Source: Candidatus Omnitrophus sp.
Lineage (GTDB): Bacteria; Omnitrophota; Gorgyraeia; Zapsychrales; Fredricksoniimonadaceae
Direction of reading: 5' to 3'
NCBI GenBank assembly: GCA_020719005.1
Contig: DYQZ01000001.1
Coordinates: forward strand, 5,779 to 69,778
DNA: 64,000 nt
This document shows, in pieces, positions 251 through 53,000 of this stretch. The translations under genes were made by a program, and so were the position numbers. Positions within the stretch are counted from its first letter, which is position 1. Every line of letters starts with the position of its first letter. The notes below the pieces were generated by a model. It was not told where the DNA came from and did no database searches. It was given only the letters and a program-made list of their open reading frames with translations.

Positions 251-1432
251 GTGGGTAAATATCTGATCGCGAGTGACCGCGTATGGTTTGTTCATGAAAA
301 AGAAGAAGGGTGTGTTTCGTGGGAGGCTTTTGCATCAGCCGATTTTATGAAAGAAGCACCGGCATCAGTATTGTTGACGGAAATAGAATTCAAAAAGAAC
401 GGACCTGTTGTTAATGGTGATGTGCAAAAGAGCATGGGTCCCGCGGTTCTTTTTCCGGCGAACATGACAGTGCAGGAAGAGATTTTAAAGAATGGAATAC
501 GTCAGTGCGCCGGTGTGCGCAGTGAGCGTCTTCATGAAGTGCTCGGTGTATTTCCCAGGGGCAGCGTCAGGACGTGTGTTCCGTATGCATTATCGATACG
601 CGCATTTTTGATCGCGAACGGATTGTTTGAAGAAAAAGCGATCAGGGTTGTGGTCGAAGCGGCGGGAGAGATGGTTTTCTTGACCATCTTTGACGGGATG
701 GAAGTCATTGCCGTGCGCTCCCTGTCAGGGCTTTCTGTAGTTGAGGTTTCCGATGAGGTTTCACGCAGTTTGAAAAGAAGTGATGTTGTTTTGGATGAAC
801 GGACGAACTTCATTGTAAACAACAAAGAGATCGCGGAAATGCTGGTGACAGAAGATGTGTGTACCGGTGCGCAGGCGATCGTTACGGAAACAACACGCAT
901 GGCCTTCGGCGCGCTGGACCGTACAACGTTCAAAATGAATTTCTTACTTCCCGACGAGATTGCACGGCAGAAGCGGAAAGAATGGCGGCGGCGGTCTGTA
1001 GTGGTGTGGGCAGTGGCGGCGTTCGTTGTTGTTCTTGCTTTGTTGTATGTGATCGGGGGAGCTCATATTAAAAAAGAAGCATTAATGAAAGAGCAACGGG
1101 CCTTAGTGGAAATGGGCGAAGCAGAACGTTCGTTGAAAGAAAAAAGCGCCAACGTCTTTCGGGCGGTATTAAGAGAAAGGCCGGTATTGGAATATGAAAA
1201 GATATTCCAGGCGCTTTCAATAAACACACCCCGTGGATGGAGACTTGAGGCGGTTGATATACGCGAACAGGGATCGCTTAAAACGGTCATAGCTGTAACT
1301 TTTTCAGGAACACAGGATGGTGCATTTGTGTGTGAAGGGATGTTCCGTGTTTGTCATGTCCGGTCGTTCTTTGTATCAGGAAAATTGTGGTCTGTTGTTA
1401 ATGCTGAGGTTTATCAATGGGGAGAAAAATAA
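251..1432 (+). CDS. GspL/PilM-PilN-like inner-membrane assembly protein (cytoplasmic domain + single TM + periplasmic domain)
   Basis: 393-aa ORF with a GTG start 3 nt after the secretin stop. It has a ~250-aa N-terminal soluble domain and a basic stretch (RQKRKEWRRR) followed by the TM helix SVVVWAVAAFVVVLALLYVIGG. A coiled-coil and ~110-aa C-terminal domain follow. This topology is typical of GspL (a PilM+PilN fusion). The assignment is by architecture and context only. Confidence 0.4.
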   Translation: MGKYLIASDRVWFVHEKEEGCVSWEAFASADFMKEAPASVLLTEIEFKKNGPVVNGDVQKSMGPAVLFPANMTVQEEILKNGIRQCAGVRSERLHEVLGVFPRGSVRTCVPYALSIRAFLIANGLFEEKAIRVVVEAAGEMVFLTIFDGMEVIAVRSLSGLSVVEVSDEVSRSLKRSDVVLDERTNFIVNNKEIAEMLVTEDVCTGAQAIVTETTRMAFGALDRTTFKMNFLLPDEIARQKRKEWRRRSVVVWAVAAFVVVLALLYVIGGAHIKKEALMKEQRALVEMGEAERSLKEKSANVFRAVLRERPVLEYEKIFQALSINTPRGWRLEAVDIREQGSLKTVIAVTFSGTQDGAFVCEGMFRVCHVRSFFVSGKLWSVVNAEVYQWGEK

Positions 1433-1932
1433 TGCGTATGGTGTTTTTGTTGGGCATTACGGCGGGGATCGTGTTGTGTTTTGTCGGGACAACGGCGTTC
1501 AAAGAAGCACGCGCGATACAAGAAAGAACAGCTGTTTTCAGAGAAAAAATACAGCAGTTAAATAAAGAAAAAGAAGCGTTGTTGTGTTTTGATGAAAGTG
1601 CCCCGGTTCCGCTTGAAACGGTATATGTCCAGTGGATCAAGGATGTGTCGTTGCTGGCAGGCATGAGAAAGGTTTCTTTAGGAGTGGAAATGAAAGAGGC
1701 AAATTCCCTATCGGAAGAAGCACTATTGCTGGGAATAAAAAGATCACGGCTGGGGTTGGTTTTTTCCGGCTTACAGCGTTGGTCGGATCTCACGGGGGTG
1801 TTGGCGGGGATCGATGATCTGGTGCGCATCCCGGAACATTTTCCAGTGGTTGTTGATGCAGTGCGGCAGGAAAAGAATGTTTTATTTGTTGATGTGAGTT
1901 TGTTCGGAACAGCGTCAGGAGAAGAAATATGA
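1417..1932 (+). CDS. GspM/PilO-like bitopic inner-membrane protein
   Basis: 171 aa with an N-terminal TM helix (MVFLLGITAGIVLCFVGTT) followed by a coiled-coil (KEARAIQERTAVFREKIQQLNKEKEALL) and a small C-terminal domain. It overlaps the upstream stop (1430-1432), so an alternative start at ATG 1432 is preceded by GGGGAGA. Assignment by topology and operon context. Confidence 0.35.
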   Translation: MGRKIMRMVFLLGITAGIVLCFVGTTAFKEARAIQERTAVFREKIQQLNKEKEALLCFDESAPVPLETVYVQWIKDVSLLAGMRKVSLGVEMKEANSLSEEALLLGIKRSRLGLVFSGLQRWSDLTGVLAGIDDLVRIPEHFPVVVDAVRQEKNVLFVDVSLFGTASGEEI

Positions 1933-2381
1933 AAAAGAAGATAAAGATCATTAGTGTCGCATTGTTATTTTTAATAGGTATTTCTTCCGGCGTATACGCG
2001 CTCGAAAATGAAATGGAGCGGCTTCGTGAACAGTCACGGATCGAGCGGGTAAAGGAGGAAGAGATCCGGTTGCTGGCGCTTGATCTTGACCGGGTCAAGC
2101 TGGAGGCGGAGAAGAAGAAGGTGTTGGCGGAGGCTGGTGGCATTCTTCAACAGCAAGGCGTCTCTTCCGTAGCGCCTGGGGGCGTTGTGCCGCCGGAGAT
2201 CACGCTTAAGAATATTTTTATCGCAGTGTCACGCAAAGAGGCCGTGTTGGATGTGAATGGTGTGAGGGTGCGTTTGCTGGAAGGAGAGAAAAGAGGGCTC
2301 TTGTTTTTGAAAGAGGTTAACGCAAGAGGGGTGGTGTTGGTGTATGACGGTAAAGAAAATGTGTTGGGTCTGCGGTTATGA
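1929..2381 (+). CDS. Small periplasmic protein with signal/TM anchor, coiled-coil and C-terminal beta domain (PilP/GspC-like?)
   Basis: 150 aa: MKKKIKIISVALLFLIGISSGVYA signal-like N-terminus, a charged coiled-coil (ERLREQSRIERVKEEEIRLLALDLDRVKLEAEKKK), then a beta-rich C-terminus. Start and stop overlap the neighbours by 4 nt, suggesting translational coupling. Function inferred only from position. Confidence 0.3.
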   Translation: MKKKIKIISVALLFLIGISSGVYALENEMERLREQSRIERVKEEEIRLLALDLDRVKLEAEKKKVLAEAGGILQQQGVSSVAPGGVVPPEITLKNIFIAVSRKEAVLDVNGVRVRLLEGEKRGLLFLKEVNARGVVLVYDGKENVLGLRL

Positions 2382-3982
2382 AGAATGAACGGCTCGGCGC
2401 TATCTTATATCAACAGGATGAGACTTGCGGCCGACCCGTGGAAACGGGGTTGTCGTTGCAGCGGGCGTTGTCTTTTCCACAGCGCTTAGGGCGGTTGCTT
2501 GTTGAATATCGCCTGGTCGATGAAGAACGTATCACAAAAGCATTGGCATTACAGGCGGGGTGGCCCGTATTCGACGGAGAATGGATCGTTGATGAAAAGG
2601 GGCTTGATGATACGGGCGCGGCGTTCTTTCTGGAAAAAGAAGTCTTCCCGTTATTGGCCCCTGGCGGGAAAGCTTTTGTCATGGCTGACGGGGATCATCG
2701 GGAGGTGGTCGATCTTTTAAGAGCGCGTTATGGCGCAGATGTAAGATTTTTTATTGCTTCAGAGGCGGCGTTGGTTCAAGCCCTGGCATTGTTAACAAAG
2801 CCGGATCCATCAATATTGTTGGCAGAAAAAGCGTTGTTGAAAGATGTGGCAGAGCGTTTGTTGCAGGAAGCTGTTTCGAGTCAGGCCACAGATATTCATA
2901 TTGAACCATCAGAGAAAGCCGTCGAGGTGCGCTTGCGCGTAGATGGGGTATTGCATTTCTGGTATGCCTTCCCGCGTTCGGAGCTGGGGCGTCTGGTCAA
3001 TGTGTTCTTTCATCGAGCCGAGATCAGCGCAGGGGATTTCTTGAAATTTCACGACGCGCGTTTTGAATACAGGAATGGTTCTTCGGTCGTTGATGTGAGG
3101 CTTTCCCATATTCCTTCTGTCAATGGTCCGTCTTTGGTATTGCGTCTGCTCGATCGCGCAAGATCGCGGGTGGCATTAAAAGATCTTGGATATGCCGCGT
3201 GTCATCAAGAGGCGCTTACGGTTGCACGCGACGTTCCGCACGGACTTATGTTATTGACAGGTCCGACGGGCTGTGGAAAGACAACAACGCTTTACGCCAT
3301 GCTCGAGGAAATGCGTGGGGTCAGCACCAAGGTTGTTACCGTCGAAGATCCCGTTGAAGTGCGCATGCCACTCGTAACTCAGGTGCAGGTCGATATTCAA
3401 AAAGGGCATGATTTCTCGAATGTGACGCGGGCTTTGTTAAGGCATGATCCGGACGTGATCCTGATAGGAGAGGTGCGTGATGAAAAGACCGCGCGCGAGG
3501 CGTTGCGTGCTGCGATGACCGGGCATCGGGTGCTTGCGACCCTGCATACCAATGATGCGCCGGGTGCGATCTTAAGGTTGAAAGATTTGGGGCTCGAGTA
3601 TGGGCAGATCGCGAATGTGCTTGTGTGTGTCGGCGCCCAGCGGCTTGTGCGAAAACTTTGTCCGCATTGCAAAAAAGAGGTGACCGTTTATCGGAATAAA
3701 GTCAGTGCGCCGATGAAGAAATATTTGAAACAGGAAATAGTTCAGGTTTGGACGCCTGTTGGGTGTGAACGCTGCCGGGGAGGTTTTAAAGGGCGAACGG
3801 TTGTTGCCGAGATCTTTGTGATGGATGATGCGTCCCGATTCCTTATTGAACAGGGGCTTATTCATGAGCTTGTTTTGAAATTGAAAGAGAATAAAAATGT
3901 GATGAACATGAAGGGCGATGCCGGACGGTTGATCGAGGAGGGCATTATTTCTTTGTGCGAGGCGGTGAGGGTATGCGGATGA
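2378..3982 (+). CDS. gspE: Type II secretion / type IV pilus assembly ATPase (GspE/PilB family)
   Basis: 534 aa. Walker A LLTGPTGCGKTTTLYAML, Asp box TVEDPVEV, Walker B DPDVILIGEVRD, His box GHRVLATLHTNDAPGAILRL, and the C-terminal tetracysteine CPHCKK...CERCRG all fit the secretion-ATPase family. An N-terminal GspE_N-like domain is present. Confidence 0.9.
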   Translation: MKNERLGAILYQQDETCGRPVETGLSLQRALSFPQRLGRLLVEYRLVDEERITKALALQAGWPVFDGEWIVDEKGLDDTGAAFFLEKEVFPLLAPGGKAFVMADGDHREVVDLLRARYGADVRFFIASEAALVQALALLTKPDPSILLAEKALLKDVAERLLQEAVSSQATDIHIEPSEKAVEVRLRVDGVLHFWYAFPRSELGRLVNVFFHRAEISAGDFLKFHDARFEYRNGSSVVDVRLSHIPSVNGPSLVLRLLDRARSRVALKDLGYAACHQEALTVARDVPHGLMLLTGPTGCGKTTTLYAMLEEMRGVSTKVVTVEDPVEVRMPLVTQVQVDIQKGHDFSNVTRALLRHDPDVILIGEVRDEKTAREALRAAMTGHRVLATLHTNDAPGAILRLKDLGLEYGQIANVLVCVGAQRLVRKLCPHCKKEVTVYRNKVSAPMKKYLKQEIVQVWTPVGCERCRGGFKGRTVVAEIFVMDDASRFLIEQGLIHELVLKLKENKNVMNMKGDAGRLIEEGIISLCEAVRVCG

Positions 3983-5196
3983 TGTGCTGGAAATATGTAG
4001 CTATTGATCGTTCGGGGCGGGAAGAAAGCGGTTCTATCGACGGGAGCCGTGCTTTTGCACGTCAATTGTTGAGTGAAAAAGGCTTGGCGATCGTTATTTT
4101 ATATCCCTCTTTCAAGAGGTTCGGGCATAACGTTGTGTGCGCTAGGATCCGGCCGTTGTCATCAAAACAGCTGGTTTTATTTTTCAGGGATCTGGCGAAT
4201 ATGTTCGAGGCCGGGCTTGCCATTAATCAGGCACTGCTTGTTTTTAAGGAAAGCCTTGCTGACGGGAATACCGCCTTTTTTTGTCGAAGCATTCAAGAGA
4301 AATTGGCGCAGGGAGCGTCGCTGGCGGAGGCGGTCGATACAGGTGGCGTTATTCCAAAGGTCGCTGTCCAAGCGCTTCGTTCGGCTGAGCGTGCGGGTAG
4401 ATTGCCTGAAGTCTTGCGGATGCTGGCAGATTATTATGAAAAGATCCTGCAGGTGCGTCAAAAAACAGCAGGTGCTGTTATTTATCCAGTGATCGTGATG
4501 GGGCTTTTAGCAACAGTGCTGGTGTATATGTCGGTAGTTGTTGTTCCGCAAGTAGAGATGTTTTTGCCATCGTCGACGATGAAAGGGCCGCTCACCATGG
4601 CATTAATAAATATCAGTAAAGCGCTTCGCGTGGGTTGGCCATGGTTTTTGTTGGGAGGGGGCGTTCTTGGTGCGGGAGGGGTTGTGTGTTGGAAAAGGCG
4701 TCCTCTATGGTTTGAAGAGACTCTCGATCAGATGGCTGAACGTTTGCCGTGGATCAAGGGAGTAAAGAAGGATCTTTCGTTGAGCATGGCATTTTTTACG
4801 TTAGCGGTGTTGCAAAAAAGCGGTATTCCGATGGATGCGGCGTTGCGGGAAGTTTCTTTTGGTTCTCGGGGACAGACGGCGCGTGCTTTTGAAGAATGTT
4901 TAGCATGTTTATTGGGGGGCATGACGTTATCAGAAGCCGCCCGACGGGATAAATATTTCCCGCGATTCGTGCATGACACGTTGCATTTGGGCGAACAGAT
5001 GGGCAAATACGGTGAATACACCGAGCGGGTCCAGCAGGTTTTTTATAGATCATTTGTTTCGCGGATGGATTTGCTGGCGGAACTTGTTCAGCCGGTGATG
5101 TTGTGTTGTTGTGCGGGGAGTATTGCGCTGGTTGCCCTGGGGATCCTGGGGCCGATCTATGGGAATTTAGCCAATATCGGCGGGATGGTGAGGTGA
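3955..5196 (+). CDS. gspF: Type II secretion / type IV pilus platform protein (GspF/PilC family)
   Basis: 413 aa immediately after, and overlapping, the ATPase gene. The N-terminus YVAIDRSGREESGSIDGSRAFARQLLSEKGLAIVIL resembles GspF N-termini. It carries two repeated cytoplasmic helical domains separated by TM helices (AVIYPVIVMGLLATVLVYMSVVVVP; WPWFLLGGGVLGAGGVVCW; CCAGSIALVALGILGPIYGNL). Alternative starts at 3973 or 3979. Confidence 0.8.
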   Translation: MRGGEGMRMMCWKYVAIDRSGREESGSIDGSRAFARQLLSEKGLAIVILYPSFKRFGHNVVCARIRPLSSKQLVLFFRDLANMFEAGLAINQALLVFKESLADGNTAFFCRSIQEKLAQGASLAEAVDTGGVIPKVAVQALRSAERAGRLPEVLRMLADYYEKILQVRQKTAGAVIYPVIVMGLLATVLVYMSVVVVPQVEMFLPSSTMKGPLTMALINISKALRVGWPWFLLGGGVLGAGGVVCWKRRPLWFEETLDQMAERLPWIKGVKKDLSLSMAFFTLAVLQKSGIPMDAALREVSFGSRGQTARAFEECLACLLGGMTLSEAARRDKYFPRFVHDTLHLGEQMGKYGEYTERVQQVFYRSFVSRMDLLAELVQPVMLCCCAGSIALVALGILGPIYGNLANIGGMVR

Positions 5197-5199
5197 GAT

Positions 5200-6252
5200 A
5201 TGTCTGAAATAGTTGAACAGGCTTTTAATGAAGTGATCGGCCTTATTCATACGGCCCGCCGAAAAGCATTCCAGGCGGCGAATACGGTGTTGATCGAGTT
5301 GTATTGGCAGGTGGGGGAATATATTAGTCGCAAGATGAAAACGGCTGAATGGGGGGAAGGAGTTATTGAGAATTTGGCTCAATATATTGCAAAAGAGCAT
5401 CCGGATCTGAAAGGGTTTACGCGGCGTAATTTCTTTAGAATGAGGCAGTTGTATGAAGTTTATTGTGATGATCCAATTGTCGCGCCACTGGCGCGACAAT
5501 TACCCTGGGCGCACAATGTAGTTGTTTTAAATAAATGTAAGTTGCCGGAAGAACGAGAATTTTATACACGTTTAGCGATCAAAGAGCGCTTGTCCAAAAG
5601 AGCATTGGAACGGCAGATCGATGGGTGTGTTTTTGAAAGAAAAATGCTTGTTTCAACAAAAGTGCTCCCACTGGGAGCACTTTTATATCCCAATATACAA
5701 GAAGAGTTTAAAGATATTTACCTTTTAGACTTTCTGGATCTCCCCGCACATCATTCCGAACAGGATTTGCGCAGTGGTTTGGTCGCTAATTTGAAGAAAT
5801 TCCTCATGGAATTAGGGCGTGATTTTTGTTTTGTTGGTGAAGAATATCCATTGCAGGTCGGGAGCAAGGATTTTTCGGTGGACCTGGTGTTTTTTCATCG
5901 CGGCCTTTCTTGTTTGATCGCCTTTGAACTAAAGATCGATGATTTTAAACCAGCATACATGGGACAGCTTTCTTTTTATCTGGAGGCGTTGGATCGGGAT
6001 GTGCGTAAGCCCCATGAGAAGCCAAGCATCGGGATCTTGCTTTGTAAATCCAAAGATGCAGAAGTGGTCGAATATGTCCTGAGCCGCACGCTTTCGACCG
6101 CACTGGTCGCAGAATATAAAACACGTCTTCCCGAAAAAACAGTGCTTCAACAGAAGTTGCGGGAGTTCTACGAATTGGAGGCACAAAGAGATAGTGAGTG
6201 GAGACAAAACAAAAAAACAAAAGGAGCAGAAAATGAGAAAGAAAAACAATAA
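5200..6252 (+). CDS. YhcG-like PDDEXK-superfamily nuclease (DUF1016 family)
   Basis: 350 aa, with AGGTGA 7 nt upstream of the ATG. The C-terminal motif block DFSVDLVFFHRGLSCLIAFELKIDDFKPAYMGQLSFYLEALD matches the DUF1016/YhcG restriction-endonuclease-like core (D...ELK with a FYL..LD helix). The N-terminal helical domain (LIELYWQVGEYI) is typical of YhcG_N. Confidence 0.7.
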   Translation: MSEIVEQAFNEVIGLIHTARRKAFQAANTVLIELYWQVGEYISRKMKTAEWGEGVIENLAQYIAKEHPDLKGFTRRNFFRMRQLYEVYCDDPIVAPLARQLPWAHNVVVLNKCKLPEEREFYTRLAIKERLSKRALERQIDGCVFERKMLVSTKVLPLGALLYPNIQEEFKDIYLLDFLDLPAHHSEQDLRSGLVANLKKFLMELGRDFCFVGEEYPLQVGSKDFSVDLVFFHRGLSCLIAFELKIDDFKPAYMGQLSFYLEALDRDVRKPHEKPSIGILLCKSKDAEVVEYVLSRTLSTALVAEYKTRLPEKTVLQQKLREFYELEAQRDSEWRQNKKTKGAENEKEKQ

Positions 6253-6673
6253 AGGTTTTTCATTGGTGGAGCTGGCCATGGCCATGGGGCTTATGGCAGT
6301 GTTGGTTGGCGTCGTCGCGGCGGGTGGCGGGATGATGACGAAGTCGCGTGTTCAGCGGGAAGTTGATTCTATTGAGGGATTAAGACTGGCGGCACAAAAT
6401 TATCTATCGTCGAGCAGTTTGACTTTTACAGGGGTAAGCGTTACCGAACTTAAGAACAAAGGCCTTGTGCCGGCGACATTTGACCCGCTAAAAGCGAACA
6501 GTTTTGGTGGCGATTATAGCGTGAGTGCAAATACGGCGGACAGCACGCGTGTGGATATCGCGCTTGCTTTGATCCCGGAAGATGTTGGGACATCGCTTAG
6601 CGGCGCTTTTAAGGGCCGAGCCGAAGCTCTAACGTATGACAAAACAACCAAGATCTGGAAAGCCACATTTTAA
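6233..6673 (+). CDS. Prepilin-type (type IV pilin/pseudopilin) protein
   Basis: Start chosen at ATG 6233, with AAGGAG at 6221-6226. The ORF-track start 6194 is an upstream in-frame extension inside yhcG. The N-terminus MRKKNNKGFSLVELAMAMGLMAVLVGVVAAGG is a class III signal peptide: a G|FSLVEL cleavage/N-methylation motif with Glu at +5, followed by a hydrophobic helix. Confidence 0.75.
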   Translation: MRKKNNKGFSLVELAMAMGLMAVLVGVVAAGGGMMTKSRVQREVDSIEGLRLAAQNYLSSSSLTFTGVSVTELKNKGLVPATFDPLKANSFGGDYSVSANTADSTRVDIALALIPEDVGTSLSGAFKGRAEALTYDKTTKIWKATF

Positions 6674-6677
6674 TACC

Positions 6678-7094
6678 ATGATATTTTATCGACGGGCATT
6701 CAGTATGATCGAAATAACGCTGGCGTTGTTGGTTATGACACTTTTTATCGGAGGGGTCGTATCAACAGGGCGCGCGGTGATCGAGGATGCGCGCCAGGAA
6801 AAAGTATGGCGGACGCTCAGCGCATTTCTTGAGATCAGCGCGCAGTTTGATGCTGTGAAAGGGAAATATCCTGTCTCGATCGAGGAGGTCGTTTCATTCG
6901 ACACACGCGTACCCTTTTTTAATCCGTGGGGCAATGCGTATGTCGTTGTGCCGTCAGCTGCGTCGTGGTGTATCGAAACACGCGTTCCGTCGGTCCGAGG
7001 GGATATCCACCAAAGCAGTATTTTCGCGAGCGTTCTTTCACAAAAGGACGGGGATGTTCTTCGCGTGTGCAGGCCCGTTGTCACAACACCATAA
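6678..7094 (+). CDS. Prepilin-type pseudopilin (minor pilin-like)
   Basis: Start chosen at ATG 6678. The ORF-track start 6636 overlaps the previous gene. The N-terminus MIFYRRAFSMIEITLALLVMTLFIGGVVS has an A|FSMIEI prepilin-like motif (Glu at +5) and a hydrophobic helix, on a small (~138 aa) beta-rich body. Confidence 0.6.
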   Translation: MIFYRRAFSMIEITLALLVMTLFIGGVVSTGRAVIEDARQEKVWRTLSAFLEISAQFDAVKGKYPVSIEEVVSFDTRVPFFNPWGNAYVVVPSAASWCIETRVPSVRGDIHQSSIFASVLSQKDGDVLRVCRPVVTTP

Positions 7095-7106: not shown

Positions 7107-8027
7107 ATGGAACAAAAAGTCTTTTTACGTCGTGGTTTTACATTGATCGAACTGGCGATCGTGTTGTGTGTGAGCGCGATGCTCGCCGGGGCGCTGGTGC
7201 CGTCATTCGTTAAGAGTGCGCATATTGAGGCGGCACGTAAGACAGCGGCTGAAATGACGCTCCTTAAAGAAGCGGCACAACATTATTTCTTGAAGAATGC
7301 CGCATGGCCCGAGGATCTTGAAGCGCTGCGCGCATCGGGGGATATTGACGAGCGTTGGCCTGGAAGAAATCCTTTTGGAGATCTTTATGTTGTAACGCCG
7401 GACGTGGGGGGCCTTGTTCTATCAACAAAAGTTCCGTCGGCAATGGGGGATGTGGTGACGGGGGCTCTTGCGATGTCGGTCCAACAAGACGGAGAGGTGT
7501 CTTTACGCGTGACGTCTTCTCTCGATGGAGCGGGTGTGCCGGTGGGCGCGCTTTTGACTTGGCCTTCGGAGGATATTCCCGAGGGATGGGTTTTGTGTGA
7601 CGGCCGGGCGTTAGAACGCGCGGCATATTCGGCACTGTTTGCGCTGCTCGGCGTAAGTTATGGCGTTGGAGACGGAGTCACAACATTCAATGTGCCCGAC
7701 CTGCGCGGGCGTATTCCCGTCGGCTTGGATAATATGGGTGGCAGTGCGGCAAATGTGGTAAGCGGTCCATTGGCACGGACCCTCGGTGGAAAATATGGAG
7801 AAGAATCCCATGCGCTTACAGTGACAGAGATGCCGTCCCATAATCATTATGGATTCGGTGAAAATATTCCCCGCTGGCCGTATGGGACCTCCGGGCCGAA
7901 TAATAATCAAGGCCCTCCTCACGCTGATTATGACAATTATTTGCTCGGCACAACATTCTCCGGCGGAAACGCGTCGCACAATAATCTTCAACCTTCGATC
8001 GCCTTGTATTGGATGATCAAGACATGA
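7107..8027 (+). CDS. Prepilin-type pilin fused to a C-terminal phage tail-collar (Collar/MdpB-like) domain
   Basis: The N-terminus MEQKVFLRRGFTLIELAIVLCVSAMLAGALV is a G|FTLIEL class III signal peptide. The C-terminal half reads LTWPSEDIPEGWVLCDGRALERAAYSALFALLGVSYGVGDGVTTFNVPDLRGRIPVG...GEESHALTVTEMPSHNH. This matches the phage tail collar domain consensus (GW..CDG..L....Y..LF..LG..YG.GDG.TTF.LPDLRGR ... H.LT..E.P.H.H). A purine-rich SD-like stretch (AAAGAAAGAG) precedes the ATG. Confidence 0.7.
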   Translation: MEQKVFLRRGFTLIELAIVLCVSAMLAGALVPSFVKSAHIEAARKTAAEMTLLKEAAQHYFLKNAAWPEDLEALRASGDIDERWPGRNPFGDLYVVTPDVGGLVLSTKVPSAMGDVVTGALAMSVQQDGEVSLRVTSSLDGAGVPVGALLTWPSEDIPEGWVLCDGRALERAAYSALFALLGVSYGVGDGVTTFNVPDLRGRIPVGLDNMGGSAANVVSGPLARTLGGKYGEESHALTVTEMPSHNHYGFGENIPRWPYGTSGPNNNQGPPHADYDNYLLGTTFSGGNASHNNLQPSIALYWMIKT

Positions 8028-8908
8028 AATATATCCGATATCTTAGCTTGGTAGCATTGATCGTTTTTCATTGTTCTGCGTGGGCGATCGCAGCAAGGGC
8101 CGCGTCCATGATGACGCTCGCCGCCAAGGCAGATTGGTCGTGTGTGGAGTTCAAGACGCTTGGGCCGTGTTATCGAAAAACACTTCCCTACGTTGGGGTC
8201 AAGATCCGATATCGTCAGCCCGTATTATTGGTTGAGACGGTAAAGATCCCCGGAGATACGGTGATCAATGAAATGCGCGTGTTTCTGGGCGCACGATTAA
8301 AACAAAACGCGCGGGCGGCTATGAAACAGAGGACTGGGGTTGATGGCGATCCGTCCTCCGGCGGTGTCTTTAATGGCGACGGGACCGCCTTGTCGATGAA
8401 TGAAGCGCACGTATTCTCGTTCCCGTTGACAGATGTTTTCTCCACCGTTGTCGTAGCCCCTTGCGAAGGCGCGCCGGATTTAGCCGGGCCTATTGGTTAT
8501 ATCAGTGAGCTCGACGCAAAAGAGTGGCGCACGGGTGAAACGGAACAGCGGTTTTGCGGGGATCAGAATGGTGTATGGCCTTTGCCCGGGACATGGCTTG
8601 GCACATGGGGCCCGATCTATCCACGCACGGGCTGGTCGGTGGGAACGACGTCTCCTGTTGCCTCGGCCTTAAGCGCGTATCGGGCGGTCGATATTTCGTC
8701 CATCAAGCCGCAATTGCCGCGTGTTGTATTATCGAAAGTTTTATTCGTGCCGGATCTTTTCTGGGACCGGATGCAGATGGTTTATCCGTCGGCAGGAAAG
8801 TGTATCCGTATCGGTGAGGACCCGCGTTTATGGGAAAACGGAAAGAATTCTTTTGACGGGAAATTTGCATGGATATTCTGGCGAAAAAAAGAGTGTTGTC
8901 TTTTCTGA
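8009..8908 (+). CDS. Hypothetical secreted protein (Cys-containing, Trp/Gly-rich)
   Basis: 299 aa overlapping the previous stop. It has a signal-peptide-like segment MKYIRYLSLVALIVFHCSAWAIAARAAS, so an alternative start is ATG 8024. No recognisable catalytic motifs. Codon usage is consistent with its neighbours. Confidence 0.45.
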   Translation: MDDQDMKYIRYLSLVALIVFHCSAWAIAARAASMMTLAAKADWSCVEFKTLGPCYRKTLPYVGVKIRYRQPVLLVETVKIPGDTVINEMRVFLGARLKQNARAAMKQRTGVDGDPSSGGVFNGDGTALSMNEAHVFSFPLTDVFSTVVVAPCEGAPDLAGPIGYISELDAKEWRTGETEQRFCGDQNGVWPLPGTWLGTWGPIYPRTGWSVGTTSPVASALSAYRAVDISSIKPQLPRVVLSKVLFVPDLFWDRMQMVYPSAGKCIRIGEDPRLWENGKNSFDGKFAWIFWRKKECCLF

Positions 8909-9258
8909 TATCGACGGTAATAGCGTGTCACTTTGCATCATTAGCATGGTCGGGTGTATATGAATTAAGCCGTGTGGATTATTTTAATATATACGAAATT
9001 CGACGAGAGAAAAACGACACGGCTTCGCGGCAGGCATTCTCATCCGATGATCTGTGGGCGGTGGAAATGACCGATAGCGCCGGCCGTTCGTTTTTACAGC
9101 GTCCGCCGGAAGTTGTGATGGAACTGTTGAACGATCCCAATACTTTGAATGGATCGAAATATCTCGCATGGAACGAGGCGCGCATCAAACATTTGGAGCA
9201 GGCGGCGGCGTTGTTGGACGAAATATCAAAAGATCCGTCGAGGAGAACACAAAGGTGA
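8869..9258 (+). CDS. Hypothetical small secreted protein
   Basis: 129 aa with an N-terminal signal-like helix MDILAKKRVLSFLISTVIACHFASLAWSG. It overlaps the previous gene by 40 nt. No known motifs recognised. Confidence 0.4.
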   Translation: MDILAKKRVLSFLISTVIACHFASLAWSGVYELSRVDYFNIYEIRREKNDTASRQAFSSDDLWAVEMTDSAGRSFLQRPPEVVMELLNDPNTLNGSKYLAWNEARIKHLEQAAALLDEISKDPSRRTQR

Positions 9259-9262
9259 TGTG

Positions 9263-10480
9263 ATGACGTGGAAAGCAAAAGCATTGTTCATCGGCGCGGT
9301 GTTGTGGATCATCACCACAGGGGATGCGCCCGCTGATATTTTTGAGCGATACAGCGATCCGTCAATGTTGCGACAAGAGGCGTTGCGACTGGATCGCACA
9401 GGTTATGACGCCACACTCGTCGGCGGCTATATCGGCATTCCTGCGGGTGATGTCCTTTCGCCTTCATCCCGCCGGAACTGGTCGGCGAAAAGCGTTTCTG
9501 ATATTGATCCAGAGGAGGTCTTTGACAAAGATCTCCGGCGAATGATCGAACGCGACCGCAAAAGCACGGTGTCGTATTCGTCGGTGTTGTCTAACAACGC
9601 TCTTTTGTTGATGTCTTATGCCAGTCCCGCCATGGCGGATATTTTAAAACATTACAGAGCATCTTTGTTTGCCCGTATGAACATTGAATACGAGCGTTCA
9701 GCACAAAAAGACAATCCTTCGTCGGCGACGCTCGAGCTTTTCTATCGCGCCTCGCTTGATGCGTGCCTTTATCAGGAAAGGACGCGTGGATTTCTCGGCG
9801 GGCTTGAGGTGTGCAGGAAAGAGCCGCCGCTCGGGCACATCAAAGATCCGACCGGGCAATTTGTCACAACACACAGGCCGTGGGCGATCGTGATGGATGC
9901 GCTGACCCGCGTGGGTTTGAACAATCGCGCGGCGCGTCTGGCTGTTGCCATTGCGGGTGATGTGGTCATTGATCCGCAAGGCATCAACGAAACGGCCCAT
10001 ACACGTACATTTTTTACAGAGACCGAAGCCCGCGCTAAAGAGCAGATGACCGATTGGATCAAAATGCTAAGAAATTTTTCCGAAACAAAGCGCGTCAGTG
10101 ATGTTGAACTCGACATGTTAAGTTGGCCTGGTTTTTCTATAACACGAAATGCGCTGAACGATCTTTTGACCCTCAACGAAACAAAACGGGCTTTGTTCAT
10201 TTCCAGGATGGCGCAGTTGTCCGCGAGCGAGGATGTCAAAAACGACCTTCAGGGAGCGTTAAGGGCTTTAGACAGGGGGATGGCTCGTTCTGGAGCGGAT
10301 GATGTCTTTAAGAGCATCCTAAAGGCAAAGAAAGCGGTATTGATAGGGGTATTGGCAGACAAGAAAGACAAGGATGCTGGTTTTAGGGCATCGGAAGAAC
10401 TTTTTGAGGTTTTGTTAGTGGATGCGGATATTGCCAGAAAGCAAATTCTAACAAGCATGGGTGGCGTTAAAACCGAATGA
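9263..10480 (+). CDS. Hypothetical secreted protein
   Basis: Start chosen at ATG 9263 (AAGGTGA at 9251-9257). The ORF-track start 9149 overlaps the previous gene. The N-terminus MTWKAKALFIGAVLWIITTGDAPA is signal-peptide-like. The ~405-aa mostly helical body has no recognised motifs. This is the last gene before the intergenic region. Confidence 0.5.
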   Translation: MTWKAKALFIGAVLWIITTGDAPADIFERYSDPSMLRQEALRLDRTGYDATLVGGYIGIPAGDVLSPSSRRNWSAKSVSDIDPEEVFDKDLRRMIERDRKSTVSYSSVLSNNALLLMSYASPAMADILKHYRASLFARMNIEYERSAQKDNPSSATLELFYRASLDACLYQERTRGFLGGLEVCRKEPPLGHIKDPTGQFVTTHRPWAIVMDALTRVGLNNRAARLAVAIAGDVVIDPQGINETAHTRTFFTETEARAKEQMTDWIKMLRNFSETKRVSDVELDMLSWPGFSITRNALNDLLTLNETKRALFISRMAQLSASEDVKNDLQGALRALDRGMARSGADDVFKSILKAKKAVLIGVLADKKDKDAGFRASEELFEVLLVDADIARKQILTSMGGVKTE

Positions 10481-10974
10481 AACACGAAAGAAGTTTGTTT
10501 TGACGTAACATATTGATGGTATCTAACTTATGGAACATGTAAGAATGTCCAAAGTAACAGAATGGACAATCTTTTCCGACGGGAATGTGGGTTTATTCCA
10601 GGATGCAAGAATGATGAGGGTGTGAGCAATCGAAGGCGCCCCCTCACCCTTCTGGTTCGGGATGACGTGACGGAGGTGTGAGATGACGCGGCACGTCATT
10701 CCGCGGCCGACTTGTGGTGAGCCAGGTCGAACCAAGCCCGAGGAATCGCCGAACGTTGTTACGATCCGTCATATCGAGCCCGCAGGCAAACCGAGACATT
10801 GCTTACGCTATCAATAAATAATTTTTTATACTAATTAATATATAAACAACTAAAATTTATAGTAAAAATAAACAAAAAAGCGGAAATAAAAAATAAATCC
10901 AAAGAAAGTTTTCTCCAAAGCCGTAAGTTGTTATAATTTAAAGGATTACGATAATAAAAAGATTTCTCAAAAAC

Positions 10975-11002
10975 TTGCCACGCCTTGATAATATGCTATA
11001 CT
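10975..11002 (+). promoter_or_regulatory. Sigma70-like promoter for the giant gene: -35 TTGCCA (10975-10980), 16-nt spacer, -10 TATACT (10997-11002)
   Basis: Near-consensus hexamers with 16-bp spacing sit directly downstream of a very AT-rich stretch (10800-10970, UP-element-like). The predicted TSS is about 11009, giving a ~60-nt leader to ATG 11069. Confidence 0.4.
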
Positions 11003-11068
11003 CTTCATGTCGTCCTTGGTGGGACGATAGATATGTTTCATGAATAAACCCGTATCAAATGGGAAAAC

Positions 11069-29000: not shown

Positions 29001-32000
29001 TCCTTACAGGAGATGTGTTCAGATTAGCTCAGAATGAGAAGATCCGCGGATGGGTTGTGGATGAATATGTAGTCATTCAGGGAAATGAAGTAGGATCATT
29101 GGAAGAAAGTCAGGCTAAGGCGCTTGAGACGGAAGTGAAAGAAATTTCAGGGTTGACTGTTGGAGATGCGAGCAGGGCTCTTCAGGGCAAGACCAAGGAA
29201 GATATATATAATCTTCGCTATCTCATGTTAATGAATAACGATGAGATCGATCGCTTAATGAATGCAGCACCGGCTCTGTTCCAGGACGAAGTCGGTTCCT
29301 GTGTCCGCACCTCCGCTTCTTCTCAGCAGAAACTTGAGAAGGTTTGGATCGATTATGCTCAGGGTAAATATAAGGAACCTGCCGCGTTCTGGGCATGGGT
29401 CTTCAAGACAGCGAATGGTGCTGAGCTTGATGAAGAGGTTAAGACGATCTTGAAGAAGATCGCGCTTGATGCTCCGATCGCGATCGCGGCTATTGCTCTC
29501 GTGCCTGACTTTAAGGATGCCATGAACGCTGCGGCTCGTGCTGAAGGTATCAAGGCGATCCTCGAGCTCAAGTTCGGCAAGAAGATCCCGAACGATGTTC
29601 TGATCGCCTTCCAGGGCATGACCGGAAATGTTGATACCTCGATCGTTGCTAATGGCGGCACGGGCAGCCTGAAGCCAGCGAAGATGAATGCTTCTTTGAC
29701 CACGGCTGTTAATCGTTATAACAAGGGTGTCTGGAGCAAGACTCAGATGGATGAGTTCCTTGCGGCGTGGACTGGTCGTGGTTATGTGGCTGAATATTAT
29801 GTGAGTGAAAAGACCCAGAAGCAGAGCGTGCGCGTGATGACGGTTGTTCCGCAGTATGCCAAAGGCTATAAGCCGAAGGGCAGAACGGCTGATGTTGAAG
29901 AAGAAAATCCTGCGCTCGCTAAATACAAGAAAAATTTGACCCGTATGCAGGATCGTCTTGCCAGGGGTGAGATCACCAAGGTGCAATTCAATAATTGGAT
30001 GGCGCTCCAGGGCAAGCTCACGGGTCAGGATGAAGTGAATGCCGCTGATATGGCGCGTGAAGCCAAGAATTATCCGTGGAACACGCCGGGTTATGACGCG
30101 CTTCAGAAGGCCGCGGTTACCAAGACCGAGGTTGTGGCAAGCGCGCCGGCTGTCGCGGCTCCTGCTAAAGCAAAGCCTGCGAAGTTTGAAGATACTGGTT
30201 TGACGATGACGGATGATGGTTATCAGAAGCCGGTGACAGAAGTTCCGGCACCGGTAATCGTGCCGGCTGTTATGCCTGCGCCGGTATCGAGTGCGATCCC
30301 TCACTTCGTTCGGGATGACGGCAAGATAGACGCTTCGATGTCTACCGAGCAATATAAGGCGTATCAGGAACTTTGGAACAAGCATGGTCACTGGCAAGCG
30401 GGTTCGCTTGATGAAAAGATCTTTGCGCGTAGCATTTTGGCATTTATTAATAAGTATGAGCTTTCTGCTGATCTGAAAGATGATGTTGGAAGATTGAACA
30501 GGGTGTTGGCTGGCGATGCGCTTATGTCGAGATATCCTGCTGGTCTTTTGATGAGCATTAAGACCGCGGCAAAGAATCACCCATCCCGTCCGGCGGCTGT
30601 TGCTCCCGCTGTTGCTAGAAAGACAACACCTCAACAAGAAGCTGAATCCTATGAGGCCTACCTTGTTGTGAAGGGCAGAACATTGTCTGCGAATGTTATT
30701 GCGGGGATCAGGGGTTTGATCAAGTCGTTGAATAGCATGCCCGGTGAAGCCCTTAAAGCCATGGCGCCAAAAGAAAAATGGGCGCATGTTGAAGCGATCG
30801 GTCAAGAGGCTGGTGTTCCGGCGAATGAATTCAAGCCTGCGGTCCAGACTGCCAGGGATTGGGTTCAGACGCACATGCCATATTCGACCCTGTCTCTTGA
30901 GACCAAGAGTAAGAAAGACGAAGCGCAGATCACTCCTGAACAGCCTCAGACATTGGATGAGATCATCGCAGGCGCGATGATCAAGGTTGATGCCATTGCC
31001 AAGAATGTTCCGGCATGGGATAAGAATAAGGAAGAGATCAAGGCTGCTGTCACCAAGGTCTTTACAACCACTATTAGTGAAGCCAAGAAGCCGTTCACGC
31101 CTAATGTGTATCAGATCACGCACACTATTTTAAGAGTGTTGAATAATATGGATACATCTTCCACGCGTACGCCGTGGGCGATCGTTGAGAAACTTGGTTC
31201 TGGTAAAACACTCGCAGAGGTGTTGGCTGTTGAAGCGACCTTCTCGTTGTGGGAGGCTCAGAACAGAGAAGCCGGAGATTATGAAGTGTGGGTCTTGCGT
31301 GATGCGCTGGTCGACGGCATCAAAGCCGATGATCCTTTTGCCTGGTCCGCCCTTGAACGCATTGCCGGGGTTTCGAATGTTACGCGTTTGATGGCTGATC
31401 CTAACGATCATCGCAAGACCATGGACGTTCCGCTTATCCCGACCACAGCCGCGAATCCGAAATACACACTGCGTTATGCGGTCAAAGACGCCATTTTAAA
31501 TCGCGCGAATGAATTTAAGTATCATGACGGTATTCTGCCGAACATTGTTCTGGCCGTGATGGATGAAAAGCAGGGCTTTGATGAGACGGGTGAACAGATC
31601 GTTTCAAGCGGCATGCCGTATTTTGAAGCTCAAGAAAAGGGCGGCAATGCACTTCAAGAGGGTTTGGCGCATGCCCGTTTTGTGCGCGACGTTATTGGGG
31701 AAGTTGATGCGCTCGAAGCAAAATATAAAGAAGGCGTTTGGGATAATCCCGTCGTTGCCTTAGGTGATGAGAAGAAAACACAGGGCATTGGCGTGAAAGA
31801 CCGTTTCAGCGCGGTGCTTAAAGCTGAATATAGACCAGAGGTCGAGGAGTTGTTTGCGAAACTTCAAGCCGATAAGAAATTACCACGCGATGTAAAGGAT
31901 ATTGAGACCTTCCTGCTTTATGTGAACGCTGTCGGTGAATATCAGCGCATGGCTGAACTTAAGAATTATGATACTGTGCCGCTTGCCATGCTTAAGCCGC

Positions 32001-50000: not shown

Positions 50001-53000
50001 TGCGGGCACTGCAGGAGAAGAATATTCCGCATGGCCGTATCCGATTGTTCTTTACCGCAGAAGAAGAAACTTTTGAACATCGGGGTGCACTTGATATTAA
50101 GACCCAGCACCCAGATCTTTTAAGAGATATTGCTTTGATGATACCTGTCGACGGGCATCGTTTGCAGAAGAATGGCCGATATGAAGATATTTTAAGCGGG
50201 GATGCTGGTTCTTTGGCGGTCATGTTCATTAATCTTGTAGATGGGGCTTTGGAGCGGTTGGTCGTGCTTGACGCCGGGCGCGCGCTTGGTATTGAGCCGG
50301 CAGTCTTTAAACTTAAGGCGAATGCCAGCGGTAATGAAACTATTTGGGGAGCGGCTGGAATGGCTGTGGCACATGTTCGTGCTAATTATGCGACGACAAA
50401 TGACAGGGCTAGTGTTGATCATGCGGATTATGCGGATATTTTGAGTTTAGGTGATTGGCTGGTTGAGATCGCTCGTCGAGGAGTAGAAATGTCAGAAGCC
50501 CAGTTTCTTAACGTCCCCGTCGTTACCCTCAAAGAAGAAACCCGCGTTGCGTTAGATGAGATGCGTGCGGATCATTTGAATAAGACCAAGAACACAACGC
50601 CTGCCCGGTATCGTGCGCTTTCTTCCATTGTTACGACGAGCATTGCCCGTGAACTTAGGAAGCACGCAGATCCTGCCAAGACCGTGATCGTTTTCCCGTG
50701 GCGTTCGGCCATGGCCATGAGCGAAGCGTTTGAGCGTGAAGGGTATCGTTACTTTTGGCACATCGGTGTCAAGCGCGATGAGAAGACGCTTGAGCCGTCG
50801 ATGTATTATAAGGGCAACTGGCGTATGCCGGAGGGTGTTGATGTGGCGGACCTTGAGGTTGTGATCGCGGACCCGATGTTTGCCATCGGCGGAAGTGTTG
50901 CCCTCACGATCGATATCTTGATGAAAGAAGAAGGCATCAAGCCTTCGCAGATCACGGGCGTGCATGTCGTCTCTGTCCCGGAAGGTATCAAGAACATCAC
51001 CGCGAAATATGCGATCAAGCGGATCATCACCGGGTCGCTGGATGAGAAGTTAAATGAGATCGGTTATATCGTTCCTGGCCTCGGTGATTATGGCGACCGT
51101 TATTTTGAAGGCATCAGCTGTGAAGAGGTCCGTCATTGGAGGAATCTGGACATTCTTGACGGGAATGATCTGAAGGCGCTTGAAGGGAAGATATTTGGGG
51201 CTGAGGCAGGGGACGATGTTGTGAAGGCATATAACGGCATTCTCACCCCTGATGAGATCGCGGCTCTTGCGGCGTATAAATCTAATACTGTAAAAGTAGA
51301 ACAGAAGGTGCTCGCCCCGGCGCTGGCCATGATCGACGGTCTGGTTTTTGAATTACCAGAGGCGCGGTGCCTGGATCTTGGTGTGCTCACGCGCAATCTT
51401 GAGGTTTGTTTAATTTCAATGCAGGGAAGGGCTCCTCCGAGTGCCACTATTGAGGACGGCATTCTTTATCTATTTTCATATGAGGATAATAAAATAACGC
51501 CAACGCTTCTGGCGCGCATGATGGTTCATGAAGTTGTTGAGGATCAAGCCCATCGCAGTATTTCAGGAATTTCTAACGAGAGCGCCCATTCTTTGGCCAT
51601 CGATGCCGAGAGATCCTTTTCCGATCTTTTTAATTCCCACGAGGTCTTTGTTGCGGATTATGACGGGACATTGCATAACTTTCAGCAAGGGGTCCCGGGG
51701 AAGGTGCGTCAGGCGCTCATCCATAATGTGCTGAGTTCTGGCCGTCGGCTGGTTATCGCGACTGGGCAGGCCCCGGACACGTTTTATACAAATATTTTTC
51801 CTCAGCTTGATCTTGCCGGGGCTATGCGTTATGACGGTCAGGTCTATATTCTAGGTGAGGTCGGCGGTTGTGCTCGGCTTTTACGTTCTGATAGAACGCT
51901 TGTTGATGATCCGGATCTTTCTTATGCGCCGATGAGTGAGGATTTTCGCTCCGAGGTCGCTCGTCAACTTGCGGGTATTCGCGCTGATCCGGCGATCGGT
52001 CTTTCTGATTGGGAGGTGGGGGTTGTTCAGCGCCATTCCATGATCTCGTTGCAGATACATTCTGAAGCGGCACACCGTAAAGCGCAGATGATCACGGAGC
52101 GTCTGCAGGCGGCTCTTGCAAGCTCGGGTTTTTATGTGACTAATGTGGTGGGTTGGTTCATCGATATTTCTTCAGCCAGCAAGGGCATTGGTGTTAAGCG
52201 ATACCTTACGAAATTCGGGCTTTCCCTTGAGGATACGCTCGTGGCTGGCGATAGCGGTAATGATATTTCCATGCTTGCCTTGGCAAAGGAAGGGGCCCAG
52301 GCGGTTTTTGTCGGATACGACGGGGCGATCTTGCCGTTGGATATCCGTGATAAGCTTGCGTATGTTCCGACGCCTGAAGCATTGGCTGATGTTATTTCTT
52401 CCAGATTTGTTCAAAAAGAGAGTGCCCCCGCTTTGTCGTTGTCTGGTTTTTGTGGCAACTGTACCGAGGCGATCAAGAAGGCATTGCCAGGGCTGGTCAT
52501 GGCCGGTAAGGTTGAGGTTCGGCGCTGTGCAGCGCTCGGCCTGCTTGATCTTGATGGGGACAAGGTTGATTTTCTTGAATTTGATTACAATGAGATCCCT
52601 GAAGCCATCCGTTTCAATGAACTCAGCAATATGCAGGAAGTTGCGATCTTTGCGGCTGAATATTCCAAGCCAGGGCATTTTTCGATCCATGTTTCTTCTG
52701 AAGCCCGCCGTCGATTTGATGCGCTTTTTCCCGTGGAAGATCCTGAGGCACGTAAGACCGCTCTTAAAGTGATCGCGCTTCATGAAAAAGTTGAGCTCGA
52801 CGGGATGAGCCATGCCAATGCCGTAGAATTCCAGAAGACGGTTGAGGGCTATAAGGTAGTTGCCGAACGCCTGGAGCGTTTGCAGTCGCTGGAGCGTGTG
52901 ATCATCCCGCTTGCGCATAACAGTGTTGATGTCTCTAATATCAAAGCCAGGATCGTGTTCGCGGAACGTCACAGTTTGACAGAAGAACAGCGTCAGATCC

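Follow-up and report, generated by a model that had tools for sequence, protein, structure and literature searches.

The 64,000-nucleotide (nt) stretch of DNA analysed here, called the window below, comes from Candidatus Omnitrophus sp. (GCA_020719005.1, contig DYQZ01000001.1, positions 5,779–69,778 of the forward strand), and carries at 7107..8027 on its plus strand a gene for a protein of 306 amino acids (aa) in which a type IV pilin module is followed by a phage tail Collar domain. The protein, termed here the Collar-pilin and classed as a probable modular minor pilin, is defined by the list of open reading frames (ORFs), by its Pfam and NCBIfam matches, and by an alignment of 20 family members, alignment A1. 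Its start codon at 7107 is the earliest one past the upstream stop, the purine-rich AAAGAAAGAG is located immediately 5' of the ATG, and the identical 306-aa product is called in three independent assemblies. The start can be considered secure, since the three assemblies agree and since the invariance of F11 and E15 (numbered +1 and +5 in the mature protein) among the 20 homologues in A1, which are 38–70% identical, would not be expected of untranslated sequence. The translation begins with a short basic class III (prepilin) leader, MEQKVFLRRG (7107..7136), with cleavage predicted after G10, i.e., MEQKVFLRRG/FTLIELAIVLCVSAMLAGALV (the slash marks the predicted site here and below), so that the mature protein would start with FTLIE, with Glu at +5, and continue with the hydrophobic stretch of about 20 residues found in type IV pilins; residues 8–20 read RRGFTLIELAIVL. 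In the NCBIfam scan the prepilin N-terminal domain TIGR02532, with 22.4 bits, exceeds its cutoff of 16.3, and the first 70 residues are similar to GspG and ComGC. In the Pfam scan Collar (PF07484, aa 147–204, 7545..7718; residues 165–206 read DGRALERAAYSALFALLGVSYGVGDGVTTFNVPDLRGRIPVG) reaches 81.7 bits, well above its gathering threshold of 24 (E 3.6e-23), while N_methyl (PF07963, aa 8–30; 20.1 bits, cutoff 21.2) and Gp10_C (PF21939, aa 222–304; 24.7 bits, cutoff 27) fall slightly under theirs. A sequence-only reading of this DNA had described the protein as a prepilin signal followed by a C-terminal Collar/MdpB-type domain, and this architecture is confirmed, far beyond chance: both peptides that it quoted occur in the translation, the Collar model matches, the true start yields a prepilin-type signal, F11 and E15 do not vary, and a pilin fold is predicted by AlphaFold2 (see below). 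Of the two model matches it had expected, that to Collar was obtained as such, and the prepilin one through TIGR02532, the Pfam N_methyl score being marginal.

The Collar-pilin is not unique to this genome. A homologue search over 5.8 billion clustered proteins (90% clustering) returned about 20 full-length homologues of 295–317 aa, 38–100% identical to the protein from the window, and hundreds of further matches spanning the Collar half only. The full-length homologues that bear a name are listed by NCBI as 'tail fiber protein [Candidatus Omnitrophica/Omnitrophota]'. Among 20 family members the Collar domain was found in all 20, N_methyl in 17, and Gp10_C in 18; the most distant members, from loci L034 and L052, are under the Collar cutoff. 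Besides F11 and E15, the residues invariant in A1 comprise W67-P68, the DGR and PDxRGR motifs of the Collar domain, H235, H245, and the NxxQP motif, and family members have G, A, or S at position -1. A profile search over 1.84 billion representatives (50% clusters, E<=1e-3) gave 93,538 Collar matches, and the best 150 of these contain thirteen single-stretch full-length clusters of the Collar-pilin family, of 284–344 aa, with the prepilin motif present in all 12 that were retrieved. Thus, the similar fusions that the earlier reading proposed to look for in other genomes do exist, as about 20 full-length homologues and at least thirteen clusters. In species-representative genomes a prepilin motif precedes the Collar domain in only 5 of the best 80 Collar loci, and those five belong to Omnitrophota or to third-party annotation (TPA) bins labelled 'Planctomycetales'. 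The Collar-pilin family is small, and its carriers are Omnitrophota.

The two modules were modelled with AlphaFold2 as a monomer from 82 aligned sequences, with a mean predicted local distance difference test (pLDDT) of 85.3. The pilin module (aa 11–140, 7137..7526) consists in the model of a long alpha-1 helix (aa 13–64), bearing the invariant E15, packed on a four-stranded antiparallel sheet (strands 95–99, 102–108, 124–127, and 130–136), with block-mean pLDDT values of 91–98 over aa 11–130, which is the pilin fold; its Foldseek matches to type IV pilins are weak (E about 0.03). It is joined by the linker GAGVPV (7527..7544), where the pLDDT dips to about 84–85 within a region of lowered confidence spanning aa ~137–146, to the Collar core with values of 84–97. 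The structure prediction suggested by the sequence-only reading thus gives the pilin module and the Collar core with confidence. The region of aa 240–290 is poorly defined in the monomer (pLDDT 47–69), and the final strand is confident again: the conserved C-terminal stretch GG..HNNxQPS..WIIK (7962..8024), the end of the Gp10_C-like region, with invariant N292, Q295, and P296, has values of 80–95. When the family profile was compared with the PDB, the C-terminal half matched the fibre of cyanophage A-1(L) (8kec, 9e-13), T4 gp12 (1e-7 to 1e-6), and also T4 gp37 and gp10, and the N-terminal part matched geopilin, GspG, and PilE (1e-5 to 1e-4); Foldseek agrees, pointing to phage receptor-binding proteins and pilins. 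In PHROGs, aa ~103–305 match tail and tail-fibre families with E down to 6e-32. The nearest standalone relatives of the pilin module are GspG-type pseudopilins, and the module was judged GspG-like rather than an orthologue of GspG: TIGR01710 gives 35.6 bits against an equivalog cutoff of 88.85, and over aa 9–76 only. A profile of the pilin module returned only fragments, homologues of the pilin paralogue encoded next to it, and GspG-type pseudopilins, and a search with the module sequence alone returned one fragment; that other C-terminal modules on this pilin did not appear is weak evidence, because the known full-length Collar fusions were not returned either.

Within the phage-like half the motif H245-N-H247 (7839..7847) may be a metal site lying on a threefold axis, as its conservation and its alignment with the HKH of T4 gp12 suggest. 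With 62 Collar-only relatives included in the comparison, H245 still shows no variation and H247 is conserved to at least 90%, and in the PDB profile search the family 'MPSHxH' is aligned with 'SYHKHA' of gp12 (chain 1pdi_A), so that by sequence alignment the HxH is equivalent to His445/His447 of gp12. In gp12, three chains each contribute His445 and His447 to a Zn site located on the threefold axis, and the corresponding part of the protein is the lipopolysaccharide (LPS)-binding, Zn-clamped trimeric head (PMC3004832). Since the gp12 head is an obligate, metal-clamped homotrimer and the HxH is kept in the Collar-pilin, we infer by analogy that three copies of the latter would cap the filament as a homotrimer.

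Directly after the HxH lies a variable part of the protein, a stretch of 38 residues (aa 248–285, 7848..7961) falling within the region of pLDDT 47–69 and called here the tip cassette. For region-wise comparison A1 was divided into the pilin module (aa 1–140), the Collar core (147–247), the post-HxH stretch (248–285), and the C-terminal end, with the protein from the window as the reference. The identities of pilin module and cassette run in opposite directions. P0003 is 81% identical to the reference in the pilin module, 64% in the Collar core, and 16% in the tip, and P0004 61%, 65%, and 21%, respectively, whereas P0005 (40%, 61%, and 79%), P0006 (33%, 69%, and 68%), and P0007 (36%, 62%, and 68%) share the tip rather than the pilin. 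It follows that the cassette has been exchanged independently of the protein carrying it. At least four cassette types can be distinguished, the window type, the 'RYDGHSS' type, the 'GxLEGTY' type, and that of P0003, and in this data set they are nearly confined to pilin fusions, the sole exception being P0022, a protein of 219 aa with an RYDGHSS-type cassette in which no prepilin motif was detected. Judging from these identities, the cassette would be exchanged in the same manner as in phage receptor-binding proteins, and its behaviour fits that of a specificity determinant. Local diversification by a shufflon or of the type driven by a diversity-generating retroelement (DGR) was considered and rejected, as no part of the Collar-pilin gene recurs in the 64-kb window, whether as a second copy or in inverted orientation, and no template for it is present; moreover, the overlap of the next gene with the Collar-pilin stop codon leaves no room for a shufflon.

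The genetic neighbourhood was read in eight loci (L001, which is the window's contig, L004–L009 without exception, and the locus of P0012), and three distant loci (L026, L034, and L052) were inspected by ORF and Pfam. Common to the eight loci is a core in the order major pilin (~145 aa), pilin paralogue (~140–155 aa), Collar-pilin, TraU-like protein, and small protein (100–129 aa), followed by a protein of either ~405–418 aa or ~145 aa, and this order is kept in the distant loci at 29–31% identity. Genes for a T2SSE ATPase and a T2SSF platform protein are located directly before or after the core in all eight loci, and a secretin gene and three accessory genes lie upstream in L001, L007, and the P0012 locus; hence, the Collar-pilin is encoded together with the assembly machinery, that is, ATPase, platform, major pilin, and secretin. 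In the window, on the plus strand, the accessory genes (393, 166, and 150 aa; 251..2381), placed between the ATPase and the secretin, which lies just upstream on the source contig, as in L001, L007, and the P0012 locus, have no family match in Pfam or NCBIfam. The ATPase (2378..3982) matches PF00437 with 326.7 bits, and GspE and PilB with 332 and 316 bits, both under the NCBIfam cutoffs; the platform gene (3973..5196) matches PF00482 with 139.4 bits and GspF with 183 bits against a cutoff of 424, and the best NCBIfam matches of the secretin, MshL and the type IVB PilN, are under their equivalog cutoffs. With every equivalog model under its cutoff, assignment of the machinery to either type II secretion or type IV pili failed, and the locus encodes a divergent type IV filament machine that is not assignable from its sequence to a pilus class or to type II secretion. 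In gene order and in the type of its major pilin it resembles type IVb systems. The probable major pilin (146 aa, KG/FSLVE, 6233..6673, plus strand; N_methyl 27.4 bits) is 36% identical (E 1e-31) to the pilin of L026, which matches PilS_N with 29.4 bits (cutoff 22) and Bundlin with 20.3 bits, slightly under the cutoff of 22.3; PilS_N and Bundlin are type IVb pilin families. The pilin paralogue (138 aa, RRA/FSMIE, 6678..7094, plus strand) has no match to a hidden Markov model and is present wherever its position was read. It is 33% identical over 135 aa (E 1e-17) to the pilin module of the Collar-pilin, which means that the fusion adjoins its own unfused paralogue.

Further downstream on the plus strand, the small conserved protein is encoded at 8869..9258 (129 aa; a protein of 100–129 aa occupies this position in the eight loci) and the conserved ~405-aa protein at 9263..10480. 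The latter has counterparts of 405–418 aa at the same position in L001, L004, L007, L009, and the P0012 locus, and no family match in Pfam, NCBIfam, or PHROGs. A few peculiarities of these loci are worth mentioning. In several pilins Gly is replaced at position -1 by Ala or Ser, namely RRA/FSMIE, KKA/FTLIE, and RRS/FTLIE (the paralogue at 6678-7094 in the window; P0009, P0010, P0014, P0016, P0017, and P0019), residues that are unusual at this position for PilD-type processing. The gap between platform and major pilin (5200-6252 in the window, plus strand) holds a small nuclease-like or DNA-binding gene that differs between genomes: a YhcG PD-(D/E)xK/DUF1016 gene in the window, L001, and L007, an ORF6N-domain gene in L026 (6625 to ~7150), and a DUF559 endonuclease-like gene in L052 (7178-7546), the site being empty in L004 and L009. 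The gap resembles a site within the operon at which selfish genes have inserted repeatedly. The platform gene of L007 (6864-8089) is split into parts of 175 and 232 aa.

TraU is a protein of the F-type conjugative pilus system, and the pilin of that system is not related to those of type IV. The TraU-like protein of the window (294 aa, 8024..8908, plus strand) matches PF06834 with 97.2 bits and is also weakly similar to TIGR03756, a family of integrative and conjugative elements. Its ATG overlaps the stop codon of the Collar-pilin gene (ATGA), and the two genes are apparently translationally coupled. The TraU-like gene is located directly 3' of the Collar-pilin gene in all loci with a readable downstream gene (L004 10890-11795, L005 10938-11819, L006 10888-11796, L008 10930-11823, L009 10885-11913, L034 3459-4316, and L052 8864-9625); this constant partner went unmentioned in the sequence-only reading. 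It was called with 158 aa in the NCBI assembly of the same organism (L001 10918-11394), compared with 294 aa in the window and in L002; this short call and the split platform gene of L007 are frameshifts or assembly errors in conserved genes. Other parts of F-type systems are found in L001 (1-3142), L007 (1-3133), and the P0012 locus, where TraC_F_IV (about 815 aa) and a weak TraV match are directly upstream of the secretin. With TraC_F_IV and TraV beside a secretin, the filament locus mixes parts of F-type type IV secretion with those of type II secretion or type IV pili. West-Roberts et al. gave homology to both system types, without the TraC and TraV families (10.1101/2023.11.21.568195).

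The window ends within a giant gene, an open frame running on the plus strand from 11048 to beyond 64000 (>17,650 codons), called as >13,758 aa on the source contig and containing a Peptidase_C39 match at about aa 294–372. It is separated from the Collar-pilin gene by three more genes and a gap of ~570 nt (10480-11048), in which a promoter-like site with 10 of 12 matching positions and an extended -10 (10975-11002) and a hairpin (11008-11029) are present. The sequence-only reading had put the Collar-pilin in the same operon as the giant protein. The giant gene adjoins the pilin cluster on the same strand in the window's lineage (L001 and probably L007); as a general statement the claim is not supported, since the giant gene is not nearby in L004, L005, L006, L008, and the P0012 locus, i.e., in at least five of the eight loci, and in the window itself the gap with its promoter-like site intervenes. 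The module is followed instead by tatA/tatC in L004 and the P0012 locus and by housekeeping genes in L005, L006, and L008, and the contig of L009, which stops ~300 nt beyond the module, is uninformative in this respect. The link to the giant gene is thus incidental and only local, and the pilin triplet with the TraU-like core is an independent module that occurs with or without it. The GC skew is positive, 0.08–0.30, in all 2-kb bins of the window and the identified genes are all on the plus strand; long minus-strand ORFs within the giant frame (e.g., 52172-53833 and 29255-31123) are probably spurious. West-Roberts et al. have described a locus resembling type II secretion that precedes the giant genes of Omnitrophota and comprises 'small genes with class III signal peptides' (10.1101/2023.11.21.568195). 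The locus in the window is of the same type, with gspD/E/F-like genes and genes with class III signal peptides before the giant gene, and differs from that account in that the Collar and TraU components are noted and the pilin cluster is also found without giant genes; a collar or tail-fibre domain or TraU is mentioned neither by West-Roberts et al. 2023 nor in the 2023 Nature Microbiology study or the 2026 preprint.

Pilin–Collar fusions of a different kind were encountered as well. Among the best 150 representatives there is a separate set of 14 long proteins (P0133, P0134, P0135, P0138, P0140, P0153, P0154, P0160, P0169, P0176, P0182, P0184, P0215, and P0266) of 620–1023 aa, all 14 with canonical prepilin N-termini. 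In six of them scanned against Pfam, N_methyl is above its cutoff in every case and fn3 in three, and five contain three Collar/Gp10_C units in tandem and one contains two. Should the head be trimeric, a lone subunit would require three Collar units in its chain, and these proteins lend indirect support to a trimer; such long proteins may be single-chain pseudo-trimeric heads on a pilin. P0140, a natural protein with a pilin and three Collar units, was modelled by AlphaFold2 from a 14-sequence alignment with a mean pLDDT of 39.8. Proteins of this set such as P0140, P0133, and P0154 share with the Collar-pilin a canonical prepilin N-terminus, in their case above the Pfam cutoff, and Collar/Gp10_C units, but differ in having two or three tandem Collars, a length of 620–1023 aa, often an fn3 spacer, and an unrelated pilin module, and are probably an independent invention. 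In a plasmid collection, among the 25 of 84 records that were listed, there were only free-standing 'tail fiber protein' genes and no PilV-type fusion.

The design of a pilin fused to a Collar domain has precedents, both published and in databases. In the InterPro nomenclature we take IPR011083 to be the tail-collar entry. The concept of modular pilins acting as tip adhesins was presented by Raynaud et al. in 2021, with PilB and PilC of Streptococcus sanguinis (PMC8179133), and their InterPro survey of 1,219 proteins with 264 architectures includes IPR012902-IPR003961-IPR011083 x3 and IPR012902-IPR007001-IPR011083; the simple pilin–Collar architecture is not in their list (PMC8179133). In comparison with those modular pilins, the effector of the Collar-pilin is a phage Collar/gp12-like head, expected to be trimeric, instead of a von Willebrand factor A (vWA) or lectin domain. 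The closest published case is UCP91044.1 of Pectobacterium brasiliense, a fusion of PilV (PF04917) with Collar diversified by programmed inversion, for which Milman et al. (2023) proposed that a phage domain was repurposed for recipient specificity in a conjugation adhesin (PMC9881135). Both are type IV minor pilins with PF07484, encoded among pilus genes and with a proposed role in target specificity; the Omnitrophota protein, however, has a GspG-like pilin module, no PF04917, and no invertible segments, and varies between genomes by cassette exchange. Its membership among the PilV shufflon proteins was accordingly rejected, there being no PF04917 match, no gene repeat in the window, and no downstream room. 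CofB of the CFA/III pilus of enterotoxigenic Escherichia coli (ETEC) forms a trimer at the pilus tip (PMC8179133), and CofB and TcpB (from the toxin-coregulated pilus, TCP, of Vibrio cholerae) are single large type IVb minor pilins that trimerise at the tip, prime assembly, and bind a partner (PMC8179133). Their build, in which a linker joins a pilin domain to a beta-rich C-terminal region, makes them a working model for the Collar-pilin cap. Their C-terminal domains are not Collar domains, and no homology was found, neither protein being among the PDB sequence matches at E<=1 nor among the 50 Foldseek matches listed, so that the resemblance is functional only. With T4 gp12, gp37, gp10, and the A-1(L) fibre, on the other hand, the Collar-pilin shares a homologous Collar and distal region and the conserved HxH, while it has neither a fibre shaft nor a baseplate attachment domain, being a ~160-aa module on a pilin. 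The Collar-pilin family of Omnitrophota is thus a previously undescribed modular pilin, set apart by its GspG-like module, a single Collar unit, the lack of a shufflon, and the fixed association with a TraU-like gene.

Taken together, these features indicate that the Collar-pilin is probably a modular minor pilin of a divergent type IV filament, serving as a trimeric tip adhesin that binds other cells. In this scheme a prepilin peptidase would remove the 10-residue leader, and the hydrophobic alpha-1 helix with Glu+5 would dock the protein into the filament. The six-residue linker would then present the C-terminal module, whose homologue in the short and long tail fibres of phages is the receptor-binding end, and three copies would cap the filament as a homotrimer, in the manner of CofB and TcpB, which also prime their pili. 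The distal surface, made up of the 38-residue cassette, would bind a glycan or protein exposed on a host, prey, or partner cell, and exchange of the cassette would retarget the pilus. The suggestion of the sequence-only reading that the protein is a pilus-tip adhesin for host or prey attachment is, by these analogies, plausible. A more far-reaching version, in which the metal-clamped phage-type cap and the F-type parts (TraV, TraC, and the TraU-like protein) make up a hybrid attach-and-transfer machine and the cassette sets the host or prey recognised, is possible at a low probability. Several points weigh against the tip-adhesin scheme. No prepilin peptidase gene is present within about 10 kb in the eight loci. 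Trimerisation and tip location are both inferred, the tip cassette is modelled at low confidence, and with so short a linker the joining of three staggered subunits in one head may be hindered. In addition, with no retraction ATPase in the locus and a machinery that is not assignable, the filament might be a short periplasmic pseudopilus.

Such a pseudopilus is the basis of one alternative, a secretion adaptor, in which the Collar-pilin caps a type II secretion-like structure and its head binds cargo, e.g., the giant protein or another exoprotein, pushing or carrying it through the secretin. The GspG pseudopilins as nearest relatives of the pilin module and the best matches of ATPase and platform to GspE and GspF speak for it, as does the position of the window's locus upstream of a giant gene, as published for Omnitrophota (10.1101/2023.11.21.568195), and CofB–CofJ and TcpB–TcpF provide a precedent for cargo (PMC6048534 and PMC10120004). 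We nevertheless regard it as unlikely, because a giant gene is missing from the vicinity in at least five of the eight loci, Collar/gp12-type modules are known to bind cell surfaces (LPS) and not cargo, and a swappable distal cassette suits variable external targets better than a conserved cargo. The ATGA overlap with the TraU-like gene, the adjacency of the two in every locus read, and TraC_F_IV and TraV upstream in three loci could instead indicate the mating-pair adhesin of a conjugation-like machine with TraV, TraC, and the TraU-like protein, its Collar head picking the recipient like the PilV of IncI plasmids. R64-type thin-pilus operons have a similar order of secretin, accessory genes, ATPase, platform, pilin, and adhesin pilin. 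The same hypothesis has been published for the PilV–Collar fusion (PMC9881135). Yet inspection of the regions read revealed neither a relaxase nor a coupling protein or oriT, the loci lie amid housekeeping genes in several genomes and so look chromosomal rather than mobile, and there is neither homology to PilV (PF04917) nor a shufflon. A mating-pair function, which would in any case be a special case of the adhesin and not an alternative fold or mechanism, has a small chance of being correct.

Collar proteins without pilin modules number thousands, as illustrated by the 93,538 matches at E<=1e-3, 75 of the best 80 genome loci, and the plasmid genes, and the Pfam N_methyl score is slightly under its cutoff; both facts would agree with an N-terminus that is an uncleaved membrane anchor, the Collar domain acting at the surface or in the periplasm like MdpB-type proteins and the protein being no filament subunit. 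This is very improbable given the complete globular pilin fold predicted, and not a helix alone, the invariant Glu+5, the paralogy of the module with the adjacent pilin, and the constant position of the gene within a pilin triplet beside ATPase and platform in eight loci. As for the tail-fibre gene of a prophage or tailocin, which the NCBI name 'tail fiber protein' and the PHROGs matches would suggest, it is scarcely credible: no tail, baseplate, or capsid gene was found among the flanking genes scanned, two neighbours compared with PHROGs had no match, everything from 11048 to the window end is one giant ORF, and the N-terminal half is a pilin, which is not known from any tail fibre. The prophage reading was rejected on its context of filament machinery, a TraU-like gene, and a giant ORF.

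Omnitrophota, which are ultra-small and uncultured bacteria, are thought to be predators or parasites. For partner-cell recognition in this phylum the Collar-pilin family offers a small, expressible candidate, and its cassette is the obvious candidate for a specificity determinant, one that lends itself to comparison with co-occurring hosts and to binding assays. The view of a secretion locus upstream of giant genes is corrected, the module being independent of the giant gene, and the family adds a further clear instance of a cellular filament making use of a receptor-binding module of phage type, in parallel with the PilV–Collar protein of Pectobacterium and the long proteins with a pilin, fn3, and three Collar units. 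If the hybrid attach-and-transfer reading were true, the cell would use a phage host-range device to choose its victims.

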